Source of the DNA: a virus
UHGV virus genome: UHGV-1680239
Length of the DNA: 53,635 nucleotides
Reading direction: 5' to 3' (one strand)
Part shown: positions 2,174 to 31,220 of the stretch, piece after piece
Layout: each line of letters opens with the position of its first letter
Numbering within the stretch: the first letter of the stretch is position 1
The notes under the pieces: generated by a model
Databases searched by the model: none
Seen by the model: the letters and a program-made list of their open reading frames with translations, nothing else
Told to the model about the DNA's origin: nothing
Position numbers and translations under genes: made by a program

Positions 2174-2695
2174 TTATTCTTCGAACAATTTTTCGATAGA
2201 TTTTGTAGGATAGAACAAAGAACGCTCGTTGTTACCAACCAGCTGGATAAAGCCTAAACTTTTATAAAACGCCTTGGCTTTGTCATTTAACGCCTCAACG
2301 AAAAGTCCATGAATGCCTACAGCAAGAGATGCATTGTACACAACGCGCATTGCATGTGTTACAAGCATTGAGCCAAATCCTTGACCTTGAAGAGACTTGT
2401 CCAAAGCCAGCCTACCCAAAGTAACACTTGGAACATTCCGATAAGGAACCTTCTTTTGTTTGCTTCTTGAAGGTAAGGACTCCTTTTCAAAACAACTACC
2501 TGACAAAGTGTAATACCCTAACACTTTTGGCCTTTCTTCTTGAGTGCAAAGCACATAAGCACGAAGAATTTTTCCCTCATGCTGCCTTTTTAAGTGGTTG
2601 ACTAAAAAGGCGTTTAGTGACTCTTCGCCGCAATCAAAACCGTTTAGATCATAATCTTTCTCTCCAGAGAAAATCTCTATCGTCGTATTGCTCAC
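2174..2695 (-). CDS. GNAT-family acetyltransferase toxin (TacT/AtaT/KacT-like)
   Basis: 173 aa; acetyl-CoA-binding motif LQGQGFGSML; lies 7 nt downstream of a DUF1778-type antitoxin gene; GTG start. Confidence 0.8.
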   Translation of the reverse strand: MSNTTIEIFSGEKDYDLNGFDCGEESLNAFLVNHLKRQHEGKILRAYVLCTQEERPKVLGYYTLSGSCFEKESLPSRSKQKKVPYRNVPSVTLGRLALDKSLQGQGFGSMLVTHAMRVVYNASLAVGIHGLFVEALNDKAKAFYKSLGFIQLVGNNERSLFYPTKSIEKLFEE

Positions 2696-2702
2696 GAGTA
2701 AA

Positions 2703-2972
2703 CTACTCCATGCTTTTCAGACGATTAGCAGCTCGTTTCAGCTTATCGTTCGGTGCCGGAGGATTGCTTATAGCATCCATAACCAGATTCCAGGACTCTT
2801 CACTCAGAACCAGTCTTCGATGTTGTTCTATAACCTTTACGGCACGTTCAGATGCACTGCTAACCATAAACTGGGTTATGCTCTGGTTAGACATTGCGGC
2901 AGCTTCCTCGATGATGCTTTTATCGTCATCGGTTAATCTCAAATCGATGCGCTGCTTTTTCAGTGCGGACAT
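2703..2972 (-). CDS. DUF1778-type ribbon-helix-helix antitoxin (TacA-like)
   Basis: MSALKKQRIDLRLTDDDKSIIEEAAA... is typical of this antitoxin family; AGGGGGT RBS before the internal ATG (track ORF extends to 3044). Confidence 0.75.
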   Translation of the reverse strand: MSALKKQRIDLRLTDDDKSIIEEAAAMSNQSITQFMVSSASERAVKVIEQHRRLVLSEESWNLVMDAISNPPAPNDKLKRAANRLKSME

Positions 2973-3291
2973 TTGTACCCCCTGATGGCCTTTGATGTAG
3001 GAAGACCATCGCTCTCCTCTATTCAAACTGAGTTTTCGACTCAAAGATTACTTTAAAGGGCTATAGCCCATTATGTATGCGTCAACAAATTATGTACGGC
3101 ATAACACCGTACTTGTAATATAGAGGTCATTGTTACTTTTTTCAACAGACAAATACAAGCTATGATTGCCAATTGTTAATCACAACCTACCATTTAACCT
3201 TTACACCGCAGCCGTAGGCATTTAGGCTATATCACATATAAGAAAACAAGTTGTTTCAGACGATAATTATATACGCAAAGGGAACTCTCCA

Positions 3292-3960
3292 ATGACCAAG
3301 ATCTTTGTGGTTGGCGGCACAAAGGGCGGGCCTGGCAAATCCACCGTTGCCCAGCAAATTGCCGTTTGCCTGAAAGTCAAAAAGAAGAAGAAGGTTTATA
3401 TTACCGATATAGATATTCAGCGCACGACAACGAGCTGGTGTGAAGACCGTCGACAGAACGAAGACCTTGAGCTGATTCCTTTTGCATACGTTCAGGATGA
3501 CATCATTAAGCACCTAAAATCGCTTCAGGGTAGAGCTGAGTTTGTAGTGGTAGATGCTGGTGGCTTCGACTCCGAAATTCAGCGACAAGCGATGCTGATG
3601 GCTGACGTTATCATTATCCCGCTGCGTCCTAAGCGTCGTGATTTGAAATCTCTGCGTGACATCGATCCTATTATCGACAATGTTCGTAATGTAAACGATA
3701 AAGTGAAGGTCCGCGCGGTCATGAACCAGTGCCCGGCTTTGCCATCACAAGTGTCTCGCATTCTGGCGGCTAAAGAGATTGTTGAGACGTTTGGAATCGA
3801 GTCTGCGCCAGTCAATCTATATAACCGCAACGTCTATGATGATGCGGAAGAGTCTGGTCGTTCTATCTTTGAAATGACCGGTAGCGAGCGCGACAAAAAG
3901 GCGGAAGCCGAGTTTGAAGAATTTGTAGATTATCTGTTGAGTCTGGAGGAAGAAGAATAA
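3292..3960 (+). CDS. parA: ParA/Soj-family partition ATPase
   Basis: Deviant Walker A GGTKGGPGKST; 222 aa; followed by a small RHH-protein gene with overlapping stop/start. Confidence 0.85.
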   Translation: MTKIFVVGGTKGGPGKSTVAQQIAVCLKVKKKKKVYITDIDIQRTTTSWCEDRRQNEDLELIPFAYVQDDIIKHLKSLQGRAEFVVVDAGGFDSEIQRQAMLMADVIIIPLRPKRRDLKSLRDIDPIIDNVRNVNDKVKVRAVMNQCPALPSQVSRILAAKEIVETFGIESAPVNLYNRNVYDDAEESGRSIFEMTGSERDKKAEAEFEEFVDYLLSLEEEE

Positions 3961-4319
3961 TGTCCATGAAAATGGGTGACCTAGCAAAGCGCAAAGAGCC
4001 TGATGCACCGGCTAAGAACACAACTCCTTTGCGCCAACCAGTCAGACCACAGGGACGCCCGACTCGTGGCAAAGAGAAAATTAAAAGCCGCACAATGTCA
4101 CTGGAGGACGAATACTTCGAACTGCTGGAGATGATGAAGTTCATCCCTCGCTTCGAGAAGTTCACTCGTTCTGACGTGATTCGAGCAGCCATTTTCCATC
4201 TGGCAGAGAAGTCACCGCAGGAAATCGAGGACATCGTGAAATTGAATGAGGCGATCACCGCTGCCGATGTCACGATGCGTACCGATGAAATCAAACGAGA
4301 GTTGATGAAGAAAGGTTAA
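3960..4319 (+). CDS. small ribbon-helix-helix protein, probable centromere-binding partition partner (ParG-like)
   Basis: 119 aa, basic disordered N-terminus, RHH-like SLEDEYFELLEMMKFIPRF; translationally coupled to parA. Confidence 0.5.
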   Translation: MSMKMGDLAKRKEPDAPAKNTTPLRQPVRPQGRPTRGKEKIKSRTMSLEDEYFELLEMMKFIPRFEKFTRSDVIRAAIFHLAEKSPQEIEDIVKLNEAITAADVTMRTDEIKRELMKKG

Positions 4320-4322
4320 AAA

Positions 4323-4357
4323 TCATGCATTGGCGCGTACATTGCGCCAATGCATGA
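4323..4357. terminator. palindromic hairpin between convergent genes
   Basis: 13-bp perfect arms TCATGCATTGGCG / CGCCAATGCATGA; on the minus strand it is followed by a T-run, so it likely terminates the 4372..5139 gene. Confidence 0.4.
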
Positions 4358-4371
4358 CTACAGTGTCAGCT

Positions 4372-5139
4372 TTATGCCGCGCTAACACTATGTTCAGTCC
4401 TAACCACCCCAACCTTCACAAAAGGGCTACCGTAGCTTGGTGGCTTCTTGATTAATTTGCCTACATACAGTTTTCTAATATGCTCATCGGCTATTCTGCC
4501 AACAAATTCATAACGTTTTGTGTCGGGGCCAAGAGCTATATCCCTTGTAAAGTACTGCTGAGAACCGGCTTTGACCCAGCATTCAATCTGATAAACTTCC
4601 ATTATCAGCCCACCATATGTAGCGTAGGCATATTTGAGATTCTCGTCTCTTGGAACCTTTGCCCATACGCCACGCGTAGCTTCATATAATGCCAGAGCGG
4701 ACATTCCTGACTTGTAGGTGCTGTTTAGCAGGAAGGCAAGACCGGCGTGCTCAGGAGCAATTTCAGTTTCCTCTTGCAGCACTAAGTGATGGTAGGCGTC
4801 CAGTGATATTCTGCCCATCATGGAACCACTTCCTCGAACCTTATTCGTAAGCTCTCCGACCCCCATAAGGTCGATGCATGTCGCCTCAACAAGTTTGGCT
4901 GTGGTTTCATCCATACCATGACGAAGAATATCTATGCCTAATTTTTTATTAGCCAAAAGTTCTTTGATCCGCATGGATTTGGGAGAGTCATCGGGATACT
5001 TGATGTGATCGAGACAACGAGTCGATTTGCCTTTTCCTATGTAAAACGGTCTTTTCATCTTGTCTTCTGTATCATAGAGACAGTAAACATAGTATTTAGC
5101 CTTATCCAATGATCTCGCGTATACCGATAAATCGTCCAT
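4372..5139 (-). CDS. GIY-YIG nuclease-domain protein with uncharacterised C-terminal domain
   Basis: N-terminal YYVYCLYD...RPFYIGKGKSTR matches the GIY-(10-11)-YIG motif with the downstream Arg; about 150 aa of unassigned C-terminus. Confidence 0.55.
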   Translation of the reverse strand: MDDLSVYARSLDKAKYYVYCLYDTEDKMKRPFYIGKGKSTRCLDHIKYPDDSPKSMRIKELLANKKLGIDILRHGMDETTAKLVEATCIDLMGVGELTNKVRGSGSMMGRISLDAYHHLVLQEETEIAPEHAGLAFLLNSTYKSGMSALALYEATRGVWAKVPRDENLKYAYATYGGLIMEVYQIECWVKAGSQQYFTRDIALGPDTKRYEFVGRIADEHIRKLYVGKLIKKPPSYGSPFVKVGVVRTEHSVSAA

Positions 5140-12945: not shown

Positions 12946-13020
12946 GATGGTGTAGCTCAGCGGTAGAGCAGTTGGCTGTTAACCAACTGGTCGGTGGTTC
13001 GAATCCACCCACCATCGCCA
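12946..13020 (+). tRNA. tRNA-Asn (anticodon GTT)
   Basis: Hand-folded cloverleaf: acceptor GATGGTG/CACCATC, D-arm GCTC-AGCGGTA-GAGC, anticodon loop CTGTTAA, T-arm GGTGG-TTCGAAT-CCACC, encoded CCA. Confidence 0.85.
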
Positions 13021-13025
13021 ATTTA

Positions 13026-13112
13026 GGGGAGTTAGTCCGTAGGGGCAGCGGGGTAGACTGTAAATCTACTGTCATTGCGACTCGGGTGGTTCGACTCCAT
13101 CACTCCCCACCA
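13026..13112 (+). tRNA. tRNA-Tyr (anticodon GTA), long variable arm
   Basis: Acceptor GGGGAGT/ACTCCCC, anticodon stem-loop GTAGA-CTGTAAA-TCTAC, T-loop TTCGACT, encoded CCA; D-arm geometry slightly atypical. Confidence 0.75.
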
Positions 13113-13116
13113 AATT

Positions 13117-13192
13117 GCCGGTTTAGCTCAGTTGGTAGAGCGCCTGCCTTGTAAGCAGGATGTCAGCGGTTCGATCCCGTTAACCGGCACCA
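13117..13192 (+). tRNA. tRNA-Thr (anticodon TGT)
   Basis: Acceptor GCCGGTT/AACCGGC, D-arm GCTC...GAGC, anticodon loop CTTGTAA, T-loop TTCGATC, encoded CCA. Confidence 0.85.
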
Positions 13193-13278
13193 ACACAACA
13201 GGTAAGAGCATTGGGCGAATCGGCGATACTGACCCACAAGCCCGTAAATCGATAGAGTCAGACCAGTGCTCTTACCGT
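13193..13278 (+). repeat. long hairpin element B, abutting the 3' end of tRNA-Thr
   Basis: Arms CACAACAGGTAAGAGCA / TGCTCTTACCGTTGTG with one bulge. Confidence 0.5.
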
Positions 13279-13333
13279 TGTGAGGAAGTGCAGCTCTTTG
13301 AAGCAACCAGAAGATAAGCATCTGGCTTCACAA

Positions 13334-13412
13334 CACAACGATAAGATCATTACGGTTAATCGTCGTTCATGTGCACAATGACTGGTCGAAAGGTAGTGAT
13401 CTTACCGTTGTG
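13334..13412 (+). repeat. long hairpin element C
   Basis: Arms CACAACGATAAGATCA / TGATCTTACCGTTGTG with one mismatch. Confidence 0.5.
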
Positions 13413-13512
13413 ATGAATGCACAGGCTGATGTGCCGCAACTACAGTAGTGCGCGCTTTGCGGGGCTTGCTACAACCCTGTGTCGGAGTTCAGCACCGACC
13501 ATCACAATAGCT

Positions 13513-13599
13513 GGAGAGTAGGGAGCATGGTGCTCAAGCGGTCTTGAAAACCGTCCCATTGCGCAAGCGATGATGGTTCGATTCCATTACTCTCCGCCA
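13513..13599 (+). tRNA. tRNA-Ser (anticodon TGA), long variable arm
   Basis: Acceptor GGAGAGT/ACTCTCC, anticodon stem-loop GCGGT-CTTGAAA-ACCGT, T-arm GATGG-TTCGATT-CCATT, encoded CCA. Confidence 0.8.
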
Positions 13600-13777: not shown

Positions 13778-13820
13778 GCAACTGAAAGAGTCAAGTCTAC
13801 GAACTTTGTAGGAAGAAATA

Positions 13821-14171
13821 ATGACCAGCAAAGATAACACACCACTAAAAGTCACCCCTGAACACATTGAACAACTCATTCAAAGTGAACATTATTTCAC
13901 TGCATATGATGCCAGCCACGGGGATAACTTCATCTCTGTTTACAATTCAAAAACAGATATCGACAAAGGTCATGAGTCGTTAAAACTCTTAACGTTCTGC
14001 GTTATGGTTCTCAAAAATGGATATACCGTAACGGGAAAATCTGCGTGCGTAAGACCAGAAATCTTCAACTTTGATGTTGGTCGCGAGTACGCTCGAAAAG
14101 ATGCTATCGATCAAATCTGGCCCCTGGAAGGCTATCTCCTGAAGCAAAAGTGGCATGAGGCAAAGCAATGA
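13821..14171 (+). CDS. hypothetical protein
   Basis: 116-aa ORF, stop overlapping the glutaredoxin start. Confidence 0.45.
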   Translation: MTSKDNTPLKVTPEHIEQLIQSEHYFTAYDASHGDNFISVYNSKTDIDKGHESLKLLTFCVMVLKNGYTVTGKSACVRPEIFNFDVGREYARKDAIDQIWPLEGYLLKQKWHEAKQ

Positions 14172-14413
14172 CGATCACTATCTACGGACGAGATAACTGC
14201 TCATACTGCAAACGTGCGGTCGAGCTGGCGAAGCAACTAAAGGGACATGGCTACGGTGATTATGAGTACATCGACATCACCACTGCCGGTATCGATAAGG
14301 AAAAACTTAGCGAAATTGTTGGTAAACCGGTAGAGACGATCCCCCAGGTGCTGATCGATGGCCAGCCGATTGGCGGATACACAGAATTTGCTGCTTTTGC
14401 GAGCACTCTGTAG
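14168..14413 (+). CDS. glutaredoxin (NrdH/Grx-like)
   Basis: 81 aa with active-site CSYC near the N-terminus and a thioredoxin-fold pattern. Confidence 0.8.
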   Translation: MTITIYGRDNCSYCKRAVELAKQLKGHGYGDYEYIDITTAGIDKEKLSEIVGKPVETIPQVLIDGQPIGGYTEFAAFASTL

Positions 14414-14508
14414 TACAATACGGCTCCTTTTGGGGCCATTTATTATTTGTAGCTTTCATCAGCACAGCGTACACTTAGTTACGAGCCATTGAGTAGTTAA
14501 GAGGTTTT

Positions 14509-15117
14509 ATGCGTTTAGAAAATTGCCTAGAAGATATGAGTGTCATTAGCAATGCCCTTGCTACTGTGACCTCTAACGCTTCACGCTTTTCAAACGCAAA
14601 GCCTACAGCTAAATCTGGGCGTGATTTTATTGAACCGCGTGGATATCGACGCTTCCGTGGCACGATGAAGCCCTCTGCGAAATTCACAGGATTCAAAACA
14701 CAAACCTATGTGAGCACTGCGGCTATTCCTGTTCAAGAGAACCGCGATGCGGCACAGCTGGCAAAGATTGAAAGCAAGCTCGCAGAATTGACGGCGAAAC
14801 ACGTTCGCTTAGCCCATGCCATCTCTGGATGGAAAGCGGAAAAGATTCGCAGCAACTTCGGTGAAAGTCGTTACGAAGAACTGAAGAACGTTGACCTGAC
14901 CATTCGTGGTTTGGAGGGATTCGTTAACAAGTTGATTCGCGACTCTGAGCAACCTCATCCATATTTGAAACGCTTGAGCGATTCTGTAACTGAGTATCGT
15001 TTAGCTATCTCTGATCTGCTATTGATTTTAAATCAGTGTTTTAACGACGTAAACGTCATCGAATCGCAGACTGGCCTCATTGATGAGGACGTCTTCGCCA
15101 ACTTCTCATTCCATTGA
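14509..15117 (+). CDS. hypothetical protein immediately upstream of a YafO-like toxin gene (candidate cognate antitoxin)
   Basis: 202-aa ORF with RBS; 9-nt gap to the next gene; not YefM/Phd-like by eye. Confidence 0.5.
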   Translation: MRLENCLEDMSVISNALATVTSNASRFSNAKPTAKSGRDFIEPRGYRRFRGTMKPSAKFTGFKTQTYVSTAAIPVQENRDAAQLAKIESKLAELTAKHVRLAHAISGWKAEKIRSNFGESRYEELKNVDLTIRGLEGFVNKLIRDSEQPHPYLKRLSDSVTEYRLAISDLLLILNQCFNDVNVIESQTGLIDEDVFANFSFH

Positions 15118-15126
15118 GGTTGAACG

Positions 15127-15537
15127 ATGAAGATCACATGGAACAGTGATAGTTACGCCCAATTTTTAAAGCCGACCTTCGATATAAAGCCTGACTTAGA
15201 GATTACGTTACTCAACGATTTCAAGTCGTTTAAACAAGGCATGTACCCAGCCATATTCGGCAAAGATGGCCCGTATACGGCTCCTGGTGCTATCGTGTCC
15301 TCCCGCGTCTATCACGTTCATCTCTTGTTCACGAAGCAAGAACGAACCAGCAGCCGCAGCAGATTCAATTGCACAAGCGACCGTGCACTCGTTTACAGTC
15401 AACATGCACATTTCCAAGATGTGTATAGCCTATTGGCAATCTCCCCTAACAACGCACATCAGTACGCGAAAGATCCAAAAATTATGGTCGATATCGCTGC
15501 CTACGCGGCCGCATTTCAAGCTCTCACTAACCCTTAA
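15127..15537 (+). CDS. YafO-like toxin (candidate ribosome-dependent mRNA interferase)
   Basis: 136 aa; segments FGKDGPYTAPG...VYHVHL and ALVYSQHAHFQDVYSLLAI...AHQYAKD resemble E. coli YafO as I recall it. Confidence 0.5.
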   Translation: MKITWNSDSYAQFLKPTFDIKPDLEITLLNDFKSFKQGMYPAIFGKDGPYTAPGAIVSSRVYHVHLLFTKQERTSSRSRFNCTSDRALVYSQHAHFQDVYSLLAISPNNAHQYAKDPKIMVDIAAYAAAFQALTNP

Positions 15538-15710
15538 CAATCATATTAATAACGCCTCAGAATTTAAATTCCTCCCTTAAATGATTCCATACCTACTATG
15601 TATGGAATCATTACTGAAAATGAGTTACTTTGACTCTTGATCCTATAAGAATCTATGCCTAATATACTGTTTACTTATACAGTACATCGGCGTAACTCGG
15701 TGATTGTCAT

Positions 15711-16814
15711 ATGAAAAATAGCTTTGACAGAGCACGCGCAGCGGAGAACACCTCAAAAGAGGCGATTGAGTATCTCGAAAGAGCATCTCAAATGCAGGCA
15801 GTTATGATCTCCCAGGTCAGCAATGACATGAGATTCTCGGACGCATTCATGTTATTCACTCGCTTATCTCTGCTGATAACCAGACGTCGGCCAGAGATCG
15901 CTGTTCATTGTATTTTGATACATGTTTTGCCGCACATTGCCGATGTAAAAGTAAGTGACATTAATAGGTTCATGGTGAACCAACTGGTCAACCCACTAAT
16001 ACTGGATGGCAAAATTGTTATGGGCCGCCGCGTTTTCTCTCTGATGAAGCAGTTCCTTAGCTGGTGTGCCTTCCAGGGGATGATCGACGTATCACCGTTA
16101 AACGATATGTCACTAAACAAAGTTGCCGGTGGCGCAAAGCCCACACCTCGCGAGCGGAAGCTGACCGACGCAGAGGTATGGGTGTTCTGGAATATCTGGG
16201 ACTACTTCAATGTGTGCGCAGGTACAAAATGGGCGGCCAGGCTATGTCTTGTATCCGCAAGACGACCTGATGAAGTACTGCGGGCTAAAAAAAGTGAGTT
16301 CAATCTTAAGCGTGGGGTTTGGAATCAAGGCAAAAGAAACAAGTCAGCACGTGAGCATTCGCTGCCTTTAAGCACATTAATGCGCACATGCATTGAAGAG
16401 TTGTTCGAATACGGTAAAGATAGCCAGTGGCTCGTTCCTTCGAATAAAAAAATCGGGAAAGACCTTCCTATGTCTAAAGTGGCAATAGCCCAGGCATTAC
16501 GTCGTATTCTGGAACGACCAGAACTGATGGAGCTTGAGCCATTTACACCCCGAGATTTGCGCCGTACTGCGCGTAGTTACTTCCCAGCATTAGGCATAAG
16601 CCAGGAGGTATCACGTAAAATCATGAACCACAGTCTTGAGGGGATAGATCGGGTCTACGACCGGCACGATTATATGGACGAGATGCGAGACGCCTTAGAA
16701 AGTTTCTCGACGTACATCGCATCAATCGTAGAGCAACCGGATTTAGACGAAATTGACCACAAATTTAAGGGAGATCGTCTATCAACAGAGCTTATTCGTG
16801 TAAATTTTTCATAG
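15711..16814 (+). CDS. tyrosine site-specific recombinase (integrase or resolvase)
   Basis: C-terminal catalytic signature PRDLRRTARS ... NHSLEG ... VYDRHDY (R..R, H..R, Y). Confidence 0.8.
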   Translation: MKNSFDRARAAENTSKEAIEYLERASQMQAVMISQVSNDMRFSDAFMLFTRLSLLITRRRPEIAVHCILIHVLPHIADVKVSDINRFMVNQLVNPLILDGKIVMGRRVFSLMKQFLSWCAFQGMIDVSPLNDMSLNKVAGGAKPTPRERKLTDAEVWVFWNIWDYFNVCAGTKWAARLCLVSARRPDEVLRAKKSEFNLKRGVWNQGKRNKSAREHSLPLSTLMRTCIEELFEYGKDSQWLVPSNKKIGKDLPMSKVAIAQALRRILERPELMELEPFTPRDLRRTARSYFPALGISQEVSRKIMNHSLEGIDRVYDRHDYMDEMRDALESFSTYIASIVEQPDLDEIDHKFKGDRLSTELIRVNFS

Positions 16815-17195
16815 AGACTTTATGGCCTCAACAACCTTTTGTGATGCGCCTTTCTCTTTACCGAATCGCTCGTTATATGCAGCAAGAACCTGTTTTTCGT
16901 CCTCGTTAAGAGGAGCAGTGCCTTCTTTGTATAAAAATGCTGCGAGTTCGGGTTGGCGTTCTTCCAGCACCATCATCATAAGACGACTTGGCTCAATACC
17001 CAGTGCCAGCGCCAGCGGACGAACCTTATCGATAGGCAAAGGAATTTTGCCGCTTTTAATTAAAGAAAGGTTGTTGGCGTTTTTATACCCAATTGTTTTG
17101 GCTATCTGGGCCTGGCTCATAGGTGAGGATTCAATCAACCCTGCGATAAAAGCAGCGTAGCGACTTTCTATAAATTCAATCTTGTTATCAGACAT
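16809..17195 (-). CDS. XRE-family helix-turn-helix transcriptional regulator (repressor-like)
   Basis: N-terminal HTH SQAQIAKTIGYKNANNLSLIKSGK; convergent with and overlapping the recombinase 3' end; divergent from a small ORF. Confidence 0.75.
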   Translation of the reverse strand: MSDNKIEFIESRYAAFIAGLIESSPMSQAQIAKTIGYKNANNLSLIKSGKIPLPIDKVRPLALALGIEPSRLMMMVLEERQPELAAFLYKEGTAPLNEDEKQVLAAYNERFGKEKGASQKVVEAIKSL

Positions 17196-17446
17196 GGTTA
17201 CAACCTTTGCGCGTTCAATTCTCTCTGGTAAGTGCTTACTGATATTACATCAAAGGTTAGGGTTGTAAAGCTATTATCATTTTTTTCGATAGGCACTTAA
17301 AAGACCGGTTAAAGGCCATTGCACGGAGAAAAATTAGCCCAAAATAGGTAAGAAAATCAACTTGCATATGATATGAATGTATTCAGTATTGATACAAATT
17401 TTAGTAGTATTCCTTACCATAGTATAAGTTAGAATGGATTGATTGA

Positions 17447-28880: not shown

Positions 28881-31220
28881 ATGGCAAAAGGAAAATCCGC
28901 ACTGGCACTTGCTCTGAAAAAGAAAATCGGTAGCAACGACGAAATTCAGAAAGTAACTCATTGGATTGACACAGGCTTTCCTCCGTTAAACAAAGCTATT
29001 TCCGGTCGTTACGATGGCGGTTTCCCATGTGGTCGTATCGTCGAAGTATTCGGGCCGCCAAGCGCGGGGAAATGTGTTACCGCAGACACCATGCTGCTGA
29101 CGGAGCGTGGAATGGTAACAGTGAAAGAGTTGTTTGAGATTGAAGGGTACAAAGCGACATGCACTACTCGCGATGTAGAGCATAACGTTGGACTCATCAA
29201 TGAAAATGGCGTGATAGAGAAGACCTCACACCTGACATGGAACAACCGTCGCAAATTCAAGCGTATTAAGCTGGCATCAGGCGGTTATATCGAGGCTACG
29301 TTCCGTCACCCAATCCGTGTGGTTGACGACTTAGGTAATGTCGTCTGGCGACATGCTGAAAAAATCAGTGTAGGCGACACGATTCCTTCAATGGTTGGCA
29401 CACATCAATTCGGCGATCAGCACCTGGATGCCAATATCGCAAAACTGATGGGCTATTTAATTGCTGACGGATACGTGGCCTCTGAAAATTCAGTGAATTT
29501 TTCTAACACAGATCCTTTCATCAAGGATGAGTACTACCGCCTCATTTCGCTGGTATCAGACAAGATGCCAGTTACGAGAAAACATAACGGCTCGGAAGAC
29601 CATGTGCTGTTTAGCAAAGAGGTGCGTTCGCTGCTTTTTAAAGAATATGGTCTGGAGTATGAGAAAGCTGCTGGCAAGCAGGTTCCGTTGAGTGTGCGTC
29701 GCGCCAATAGCGAGGCTCAAATTGCATTCCTTCGCGGCTACTTTGAGCTGGAATGCCACGTCAATGATGGTCGCTGCATTGAGGTTGTGAGCGCGAGTGG
29801 GCTGCTGCTACAGCAAATTCGCCTCATGCTCCTGAATCTGGGGATTACGTCAACTGTCTCTGAAAAACACGTCGCGGGTTATGAAAATACATATTACCGG
29901 CTGTCATTCAGTGGCTCTAATTACGACCTTTTTCTGTCAACGATTGGTTTCGAATCTCCGGCACGTTTATCAGTGGCAACCAAACGGGACATTGGTTTTG
30001 ACCGCACTTACTCAGGCTATGTTCCGCACATCAGCGGCTTAGTGAAATCACTCTACGAGTCGCTCACCAAGACCACCCGTGAAGACTACGCTCTGGTAGA
30101 CCACGTTATTGGCCGCGGCGATCGTGTCGGAATAGACAAACTGCGAGAAATCTATGTCTCCTTCATTGGCAGAAAGAATCGTTTTAACGAGCATCTGTTT
30201 GCAGAACTGGCAGCGGTAATTGGCTCTAACTTGTTCTACGACGAAGTCGTGGCTATTGAGGAAGGTGAAGCACCAACGTTCGACGTAGCGATGCCGGAAA
30301 CACACTCTTTCTGGTCTAACGGGATTATCAGCCACAACACATTCCTTGCAACAGCAGCAATGATCTCCGCACAGAAACAAGATGGTCTGGCGGTATTCCT
30401 CGATCATGAGAACAGTTTTGACGTTGGCCTGGCTGTAGCCAATGGCCTGAACGCAGATGAGGATGACGGTCAGTGGGTATACAAGCAGCCAGATACCTTC
30501 GAAGACTCTGTAGAGTTGATCGGCACAATACTTAAATTGGTTCGTGATGAAGAGCTTATCCCCGAATCAGCACCTATCTGTATCGTGGCTGACTCTCTTG
30601 CGTCTATGGTTCCGAACTCCAAAGCCGAGAAGTTCGAAAAGATGGCTGAAGGCACTGCCAAAGACAAAGATCAGCTAAACATGAACGACAATACGGCACT
30701 GGCTCGTGCGACGAGTGCGAACTTCCCTACTCTGGCTTTGTGGGCACGCAAATACAACGCCTGCATCATCTTCTTGAATCAGGTTCGCACAAAAATCGGT
30801 GTAATGTTTGGCGACCCTACTACGTCGCCAGGTGGAGATTCACCGAAGTTCTACGCTTCTGTACGTATCCGTCTTGGTGCATCGGTGATGAAGGATGGTA
30901 AAGAGAAGATCGGCCAGGACGTAGGCGCAGAATGCATCAAAAACAAAGTTGCACCACCGTATGGCAAATGCACCTGGAAATTCTACTTCGATCCTACTCG
31001 TGGCCTCGACGTTATCGAATCGCTCGTCGAGTACATGCTGGAAGAAGGATACCTGCCAAAGAACGCCAGCGGGCGAGTTGAAATTGGTGACAAGAAATAC
31101 ACCAAATCGCAGATCGTCGAGATGTATCGGGAGAAGCCACTGGCTGAAATCATTGCGGCTTTGCAGGCAATCGACGACCGAAGAGCAAAAGACAACCCCA
31201 CCGAGTCAGTAGAAGAGTAA
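28881..31220 (+). CDS. RecA/UvsX-like recombinase precursor interrupted by an intein
   Basis: Exteins join as GPPSAGK|TFLATAA...; RecA-like FLNQVRTKIGVMFGDPTTSPGGDSPKFYASVRIRLG; 779 aa total, about 357 aa without the intein. Confidence 0.8.
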   Translation: MAKGKSALALALKKKIGSNDEIQKVTHWIDTGFPPLNKAISGRYDGGFPCGRIVEVFGPPSAGKCVTADTMLLTERGMVTVKELFEIEGYKATCTTRDVEHNVGLINENGVIEKTSHLTWNNRRKFKRIKLASGGYIEATFRHPIRVVDDLGNVVWRHAEKISVGDTIPSMVGTHQFGDQHLDANIAKLMGYLIADGYVASENSVNFSNTDPFIKDEYYRLISLVSDKMPVTRKHNGSEDHVLFSKEVRSLLFKEYGLEYEKAAGKQVPLSVRRANSEAQIAFLRGYFELECHVNDGRCIEVVSASGLLLQQIRLMLLNLGITSTVSEKHVAGYENTYYRLSFSGSNYDLFLSTIGFESPARLSVATKRDIGFDRTYSGYVPHISGLVKSLYESLTKTTREDYALVDHVIGRGDRVGIDKLREIYVSFIGRKNRFNEHLFAELAAVIGSNLFYDEVVAIEEGEAPTFDVAMPETHSFWSNGIISHNTFLATAAMISAQKQDGLAVFLDHENSFDVGLAVANGLNADEDDGQWVYKQPDTFEDSVELIGTILKLVRDEELIPESAPICIVADSLASMVPNSKAEKFEKMAEGTAKDKDQLNMNDNTALARATSANFPTLALWARKYNACIIFLNQVRTKIGVMFGDPTTSPGGDSPKFYASVRIRLGASVMKDGKEKIGQDVGAECIKNKVAPPYGKCTWKFYFDPTRGLDVIESLVEYMLEEGYLPKNASGRVEIGDKKYTKSQIVEMYREKPLAEIIAALQAIDDRRAKDNPTESVEE
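29073..30338 (+). mobile_element. intein (422 aa) with LAGLIDADG homing-endonuclease domain, inserted in the P-loop
   Basis: Begins with Cys after GPPSAGK, ends ...IISHN followed by Thr; LAGLIDADG-like blocks KLMGYLIADGY and FLRGYFELECHV. Confidence 0.75.

Follow-up and report, generated by a model that had tools for sequence, protein, structure and literature searches.

In the virus genome UHGV-1680239, a stretch of 53,635 nt referred to here as the window, two adjacent genes and the promoter region in front of them (14446–15537) probably form a self-contained type II toxin–antitoxin operon that is carried as cargo by a phage-plasmid from enteric bacteria and whose antitoxin belongs to a new family. 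A preliminary description of this DNA had proposed a variant toxin–antitoxin pair with a new antitoxin, and that proposal is supported by the finding of a conserved, tightly coupled and self-contained cassette in distant homologues and in unrelated genomic contexts. The toxin is already known by name, as it is assigned to the YafO family in public annotation, and what is new is most likely the recognition of its partner as an antitoxin family. Specifically, sequence comparisons indicate that a distinct clade of YafO proteins travels on phage-plasmids together with a dedicated, unannotated partner family of its own. The features discussed below are collected in Table 1.

Table 1. Features of the cassette, its flanks and two variant loci, with their positions
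Feature	Position	Strand	Remarks
Terminator-like hairpin	14422–14437	+	GC-rich, 6-bp stem with 5 G-C pairs; T-rich tail ATTTATTATT; just after the glutaredoxin gene
Promoter-like site	14447–14475	+	TTGTAG (−35), 17-nt spacer, TACACT (−10); 8 of 12 consensus matches; read from the sequence
Two 10-nt direct repeats	14476–14503	+	TAGTTACGAG and TAGTTAAGAG, between the −10 hexamer and the start codon; second copy overlaps the Shine–Dalgarno sequence AAGAGG
Partner gene, proposed new antitoxin	14509–15117	+	202 aa; from ORF, homologues, alignments and structure model
Partner N-terminal helix	residues 6–28		Acidic, highly conserved; AlphaFold2 model and alignments
Partner linker	residues 29–74		Hypervariable, disordered, strongly basic (net charge +7.8); model and alignments
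Partner three-helix bundle	residues 75–178		AlphaFold2 model and alignments
Partner C-terminal tail	residues 181–202		Highly conserved, acidic (net charge −4.2), modelled as disordered; ends F-A-N-F-S-F-H
Gene junction	15115–15126	+	Partner stop TGA runs into GG (TGAGG), the Shine–Dalgarno sequence for the toxin gene, 8 nt before the second ATG
YafO-family toxin gene	15127–15537	+	136 aa; RelE/BECR superfamily; carries the rare F106S substitution
Perfect palindrome, 33 bp	15580–15612	.	13-nt arms, 7-nt spacer (AATGATTCCATAC CTACTAT GTATGGAATCATT); constant right edge of the cargo slot
Disrupted-partner loci	CP059990.1 stretch 2501–3526; RDAV01000003.1 stretch 2380–3451		Toxin gene intact in both

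Two Genes Joined by a Conserved Junction

Reading of the open reading frames in the window confirmed the arrangement first described, namely an upstream gene of 202 aa (14509–15117), here called the partner gene, and a YafO-like gene of 136 aa (15127–15537), both starting with ATG, both on the plus strand and separated by exactly 9 nt (15118–15126). Judged by homology, both are real genes and not chance ORFs, because the partner matches phrog_13546 from end to end and has full-length homologues, while the downstream protein matches the YafO_toxin profile. Partner homologues remain full-length down to ~26% identity, and the indels among them come in multiples of three. Some annotations begin the partner at M53, which gives a protein of 150 aa; the 202-aa start is better supported by the sequences, since the N-terminal 28 residues are kept in distant homologues at the protein level and the ATG is preceded, at a distance of 4 nt, by the Shine–Dalgarno sequence AAGAGG (14499–14504).

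The junction between the genes is conserved as well. In seven of seven paired loci compared, T[GA]AGG is followed by 5–9 nt and then the start codon, within an intergenic gap of 7–11 nt. The overlap of stop codon and Shine–Dalgarno sequence at 15115–15126 would couple translation of the toxin gene to that of the partner gene. Adjacent, co-oriented genes with a short gap are characteristic of type II operons, and this is the layout found both here (9 nt) and at the other loci.

The Downstream Gene Encodes a YafO-Family Protein

The likeness of the 136-aa protein to E. coli YafO, noted in the preliminary description, was borne out by the searches: the protein scores 76.4 bits against Pfam PF13957 (YafO_toxin; cut-off 25), covering profile positions 2–100 of 101, and is 36% identical to YafO of E. 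coli K-12 over 110 residues (E 2e-13). Against the NCBIfam equivalog NF007377, which represents E. coli YafO, it scores 56.9 bits and thus misses the cut-off of 153, so that on sequence grounds we regard it as a member of the YafO family and not as an orthologue of the K-12 protein. Public annotation already calls it a “type II toxin-antitoxin system YafO family toxin.” In an alignment of seven clade members with K-12 YafO, 22 columns are invariant; these take in an H-x-H-L motif, and D31, F32, K36, G45, D47, Y50, H63, H65, T83, Y90 and H111 are among them. The protein is basic (pI 9.0). Its structure model is only moderate in quality (mean pLDDT 69), with residues 36–59 disordered even though they cover conserved residues, and in a fold search the model came closest to the HigB, RelE, YafQ and YoeB toxins, recovering a RelE/BECR-type fold. 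None of the solved structures matched the YafO sequence, and among the defence models of PADLOC-DB 2.0 the toxin matched no family at E ≤ 1.

The copy in the window differs from its relatives at one position. Codon 106 (15442–15444) specifies serine (TCC), where phenylalanine (TTC) is found in all 24 of the other cluster representatives and K-12 YafO has leucine. Within a collection of 15 billion proteins the exact S106 allele is present on only 3 contigs, whereas F106 alleles are present on hundreds, and the partner allele of the window is found on 627 contigs against the 3 that carry its toxin allele. Because phenylalanine occupies residue 106 in 24 of 24 other representatives, the F106S substitution may attenuate the toxin of the window.

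These data also bear on the idea that the YafO-like protein of this clade no longer inhibits growth at all and that the pair performs some other task for the phage-plasmid, such as RNA processing with a helical cofactor. That idea, which we find scarcely credible, would accommodate the equivalog score below the cut-off, the modelled disorder over conserved positions at residues 36–59 and the tolerance of the F106S allele in the window, but it is opposed by the 22 positions, H-x-H-L included, that are invariant with K-12 YafO, by the RelE-like fold recovered in the model and by a gene order, spacing and mobility that are those of type II modules.

The Partner Belongs to a Separate, All-Helical Family

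The upstream protein had been said not to resemble the short YefM/Phd-type antitoxin YafN, and every comparison agrees with this. Profile searches of both ORFs led the toxin to PF13957 and the partner to nothing in Pfam, NCBIfam, PADLOC (0 families of PADLOC-DB 2.0 at E ≤ 1) or the sequences of the PDB; the sole library match of the partner was phrog_13546, end to end at E 8.5e-125, a family to which no function is assigned. BLASTP of the partner against YafN gave no alignment with E ≤ 100, and hhalign comparison of the partner profile with a profile of 22 YafN sequences returned a probability of 0.2%. Structure prediction with AlphaFold2 yielded an all-helical model of moderate quality (mean pLDDT 65) with no Phd/YefM domain. 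Fold searches with this model returned generic helical bundles only, and neither Pfam nor the fold searches revealed an RHH, HTH, AbrB or Phd DNA-binding domain.

Some of these properties count against reading the partner as an antitoxin: it is about twice the usual antitoxin size, it is net basic (pI 8.9), and it has no recognizable DNA-binding domain. The moderate quality of both structure models (pLDDT 65 and 69) is a further point against it. Of the 11 partner columns that are invariant in the most diverse alignment, 9 lie within the last 34 residues, and that alignment contains no conserved His/Cys/acid catalytic set. Because the invariant columns crowd into this terminal region and nothing catalytic-looking accompanies them, the sequence fits a binding protein rather than an enzyme. 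The conserved acidic C-terminal region of the partner probably binds the toxin; the charge of the tail (−4.2) is complementary to that of the basic toxin.

The C-terminal end of the partner bears some likeness to that of YafN. Residues 190–202 (approximately 15076–15114 of the window) end in IDEDVFANFSFH, an acidic run followed by hydrophobic-x-x-F-[ST], and residues 86–97 of YafN (2261–2296 of the K-12 stretch compared) have a similar ending, with SDKDLTEFTE as the family consensus and DDDFNDFKE in K-12 YafN itself. A toxin-binding C-terminal motif shared by the two presumed antitoxins was considered and rejected, as the profile–profile comparison was not significant. Their common acidic stretch with a hydrophobic-x-x-F-[ST] ending, a likeness that lacks statistical support, may reflect convergence or chance.

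The Region Upstream of the Partner Gene

The putative control elements lie in the stretch from the glutaredoxin gene to the partner gene. The sequence of the terminator-like hairpin at 14422–14437 is kept in related phage-plasmids, and this hairpin would shield the cassette from transcription that comes in from upstream. DNA homology with the Erwinia chromosomal copy begins at 14446, and the promoter-like site follows directly. With 8 of 12 consensus matches this site falls just under the threshold of the promoter scanner; in an alignment of nine loci, the coding regions of which are as low as ~26% identical, little or no variation is seen in the TTGT or at positions 1 (T), 4 (A) and 6 (T) of the −10 hexamer. 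The two direct repeats downstream of the −10 hexamer are a weak operator candidate and should be taken as a lead only, because they are poorly conserved in distant loci. A search of the promoter region for an inverted-repeat operator at seed 6 found none. Tandem repeats upstream of the toxin gene were likewise not found, nor was a relevant Rfam match, and their lack argues against an RNA antitoxin of the kind that defines type III toxin–antitoxin systems.

The Two Genes Recur, Move and Diverge Together

At 90% identity the tiny partner family falls into 27 clusters; 1.84 billion proteins contain 11 representatives of it, and 185,579 species genomes contain 3 loci. Every homologue of the partner with enough flanking sequence has a YafO-like gene 7–11 nt downstream, down to ~26% identity and including the distant metagenomic members P0070, P0072 and P0075. 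Conversely, the most divergent toxins of the clade, those on Enterobacter and Brenneria chromosomes, have a partner homologue of 184–203 aa located 9 nt upstream. Co-occurrence, which is expected of a type II system together with mobility as a unit, was seen in both directions, from partner to toxin and from toxin to partner. Besides phage-plasmids, the pair occupies chromosomal sites in Erwinia, Enterobacter and Brenneria, which makes at least four unrelated contexts. Moreover, DNA homology between the phage-plasmid and the Erwinia chromosome extends over 14446–15487 only, that is, over the promoter region and the two genes, and by this comparison the two genes travel together. Between pairs of loci, the identity of the partners correlates with that of the toxins (r = 0.79), and in 21 of 21 comparisons the partner has diverged further than the toxin, as antitoxins usually do.

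The cassette is present in 273 PLSDB plasmids, 229 of them from Klebsiella, and in 20 of 5,426 complete E. coli genomes, where it always resides on plasmids. Its exact alleles occur on hundreds of contigs, with Shigella sonnei and Salmonella among the source names. All of the listed PLSDB and E. coli records name the partner “hypothetical protein” and nothing more, and the PLSDB records give the pair as “hypothetical protein” followed by “YafO family toxin.” Two records depart from the intact arrangement. In E. coli plasmid CP059990.1 the partner gene is disrupted by three clustered indels, which restore the frame and leave two stops after codon 121, and in K. pneumoniae RDAV01000003.1 a 2-nt deletion in the linker removes approximately the first 34 residues of the partner. 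Sequencing error may explain these alleles, or the coupled toxin may be silenced by polarity; if the alleles are real, the need for a full-length partner is weakened. Together with the F106S substitution in the toxin of the window, such records of a disrupted partner beside an intact toxin speak against the antitoxin reading.

They would fit more readily with the partner being a co-transcribed accessory or regulatory protein, the toxin being held in check by an antisense or cis-encoded RNA or by a YafN-type antitoxin of the host. Such a role would allow for the lack, in the partner, of any known antitoxin fold or DNA-binding domain, and in Erwinia sp. JUb26 the contig with the module also encodes a yafN homologue. 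We nevertheless consider this explanation decidedly improbable. The unit shared by plasmid and Erwinia chromosome consists of only the promoter and the two genes, no Rfam match or tandem repeats point to an RNA, and cross-neutralization, which would require a compatible chromosomal YafN in Klebsiella, Enterobacter and the remaining hosts, is doubtful because the toxin is only 36% identical to K-12 YafO. Furthermore, a mere passenger would hardly be expected to show strict co-occurrence, a spacing of 7–11 nt with a conserved coupling junction and correlated divergence.

Two further loci deserve mention. On the 1.08-Mb contig NZ_RJVB01000001.1 of Erwinia sp. JUb26, a canonical YafN homologue (P0107) and the module of partner and YafO-like genes occur together, and the two coexisting YafO-type systems are presumably insulated from each other. 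In Acerihabitans sp. TG2 (4013–4546 of the stretch compared) the module has decayed to the last 95 aa of the partner and the first 78 aa of the toxin, and a fragment of the 3′ end of the glutaredoxin gene is retained with them. Because the module fragments are accompanied by this glutaredoxin fragment, the sequence indicates that this is a remnant of phage-plasmid origin and that its two genes decayed jointly.

A Model for the Cassette and Its Relation to Known Systems

Collectively, these observations can be assembled into a model of a type II operon. Both proteins would be made from one transcript begun at the conserved promoter, with translation of the toxin coupled to that of its partner. 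The toxin, as a YafO-family endoribonuclease of RelE fold, would block translation by mRNA cleavage, a function suggested by its family membership. The 202-aa protein would be its cognate antitoxin, a non-enzymatic, all-helical protein of a previously unrecognized family, and would sequester the basic toxin (pI 9.0) by means of its best-conserved region, made up of the last helix of the bundle and the acidic disordered tail ending F-x-N-F-S-F-H. The N-terminal helix and the basic linker may provide oligomerization or nucleic-acid binding for autoregulation. Were the element lost or synthesis of the partner stopped, the partner would decay and the toxin would arrest growth, and arrest by the freed toxin could either stabilize the plasmid-like prophage through addiction or abort an infection. 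Toxicity, neutralization and a biological role in plasmid addiction or defence are all drawn from sequence and gene context and are accordingly stated here as predictions.

The nearest known system is yafN-yafO of E. coli K-12. Its toxin is of the same family (PF13957; 36% identity, 132 aa compared with 136 aa here, with shared invariant residues), and the antitoxin gene comes first in both, with a gap of 2 nt in K-12 and 9 nt here. YafN, however, is a protein of 97 aa with a PF02604 domain, whereas the partner is a 202-aa, all-helical protein with no Phd/YefM domain; in addition, yafN-yafO resides in the chromosomal, SOS-regulated dinB operon, and the present pair in a phage-plasmid cargo slot. 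Among the BECR-fold systems HigBA, RelBE, YefM-YoeB and DinJ-YafQ, it is their toxins that the predicted toxin fold matches best, and the logic is alike: a small two-gene operon on mobile elements whose products are a toxin that cleaves mRNA and a protein antitoxin that binds it through a disordered region. The antitoxins of these systems have RHH, HTH or Phd/YefM domains and are usually 70–120 aa long, whereas no such domain is detectable in the partner. The phd-doc pair of phage P1 is likewise a two-gene module on a prophage kept as a low-copy plasmid, but its toxin family (Doc is a Fic-fold kinase) and its antitoxin family (Phd) are unrelated to those of the pair. For phd-doc the expected role is postsegregational killing, and addiction is classical for low-copy plasmid-prophages.

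YafO is among the least understood toxins of the RelE superfamily. The swapping of antitoxin families between toxins is well known, and for this reason the pair does not amount to a new category of system; if the partner is an antitoxin, it would add a new antitoxin family. In a 2011 census of type II systems, YafO was found on chromosomes only, with partners that were of Phd type or were assigned through guilt by association, that is, gene adjacency (PMC3141249). Our literature search found no paper that describes the pair or the partner or that links YafO with SSU5-type phage-plasmids. Annotation pipelines now report an orphan toxin in all of these plasmids and genomes, and naming the partner would complete the annotations and would offer a testable handle on how plasmid-prophages of ~110 kb, some of which carry resistance genes, are maintained in their hosts. 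The cassette is common in clinically relevant hosts, which gives it practical weight.

Variable Cargo in a Slot of SSU5-Like Phage-Plasmids

The window belongs to an SSU5-like phage-plasmid. Over the region 13800–17300 it shares 98% identity with Escherichia phage CMS-2020a (CP053388) and with phage Cyrano, and ~75% with the Klebsiella phage-plasmids pJN2-26 and vB_Kpn_1825-KPC53, the relatives being ~108–120 kb in size. Close to the pair are four tRNA genes, an N4-gp49-family gene and genes for a glutaredoxin, a tyrosine recombinase, an HTH repressor-like protein and CobT/CobS-like proteins; farther away are genes for a DnaB-like helicase, a ligase, a Pol III alpha subunit, an intein-containing RecA, a Rep3 initiator and a ribonucleotide reductase. 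Relative to phage Cyrano, homology breaks off at 14385 and returns at 15580, and comparison of the intervening 14386–15579 with the related stretches (L001, 3587–4489; L021, 1–4000) defines a slot for variable cargo in SSU5-like phage-plasmids, situated between the glutaredoxin gene and the palindrome and recombinase gene. Phage Cyrano has an unrelated 184-aa gene on the opposite strand in this slot, PhiR41_1 has a fimbrial usher and an AraC-type regulator, and pJN2-26 has the same pair together with a colicin-E1-immunity-like gene.

This setting is relevant to what the cassette may be for. The pair could be chiefly an anti-phage or superinfection-exclusion module acting by abortive infection, in which the partner is a sensor-antitoxin that releases the YafO-like RNase upon infection by a competing phage; the biochemistry would be as in the toxin–antitoxin model above, with a different trigger and role. 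We regard a primarily anti-phage role as unlikely. It draws on the location of the cassette in a slot where other elements bear different accessory genes and on the occurrence, in a related Klebsiella contig, of an AbiH-domain gene ~1.4 kb ahead of the partner gene, the glutaredoxin gene being the only one called in the interval. It would also account for a partner far larger and more elaborate than a minimal antitoxin and for the persistence of the module in chromosomes, where addiction is not needed, and defence roles of RelE-superfamily toxin–antitoxin modules have been reviewed (PMC11980606). Yet neither protein matches any PADLOC defence model, no phage-sensing domain is recognizable, and the host element is a low-copy, non-mobilizable plasmid-prophage of ~110 kb, the classical setting for addiction. 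A related suggestion, to which we give similarly little credence and which we offer tentatively, is that the partner is a multi-segment sensor-antitoxin, composed of the N-terminal helix, the hypervariable basic linker and the bundle with its toxin-binding tail, that ties a YafO-type RNase to a specific signal, for example infection by a competing phage or the phage-plasmid's own lysis–lysogeny or loss state. If so, the cassette would be a defence or exclusion system that is borne by the phage-plasmid and triggered by a new mechanism.

The palindrome at the right edge of the slot adjoins the cassette but lies outside the mobile two-gene unit. Homology with phage-plasmids that bear other cargo resumes exactly at 15580, the first position of the palindrome, which is unique in the window and is located 98 nt upstream of the tyrosine recombinase gene (15711–16814). 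Its geometry recalls the lox- and dif-type sites of recombinases, and by analogy it could be a site for dimer resolution or for cargo capture. Alternatively, because it folds as RNA with −20.5 kcal/mol (z −5.8), it could be a terminator.

Several features of the surrounding DNA were noted in passing. The HTH repressor-like gene (16809–17195, minus strand) is convergent with the recombinase gene, with a 6-nt overlap at the 3′ end of the latter; the counterpart of the repressor-like gene in phage Cyrano is annotated as a putative repressor. The tRNA cluster at 12946–13599 comprises Asn, Tyr, Thr and Ser genes, whereas phage Cyrano has only Asn, Thr and Ser there, and since the Cyrano cluster is without Tyr, tRNA content varies among close relatives. 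Finally, an intein that carries a LAGLIDADG homing-endonuclease domain splits the RecA-like gene at 28881–31220 (Pfam RecA, Intein_splicing and LAGLIDADG_3).
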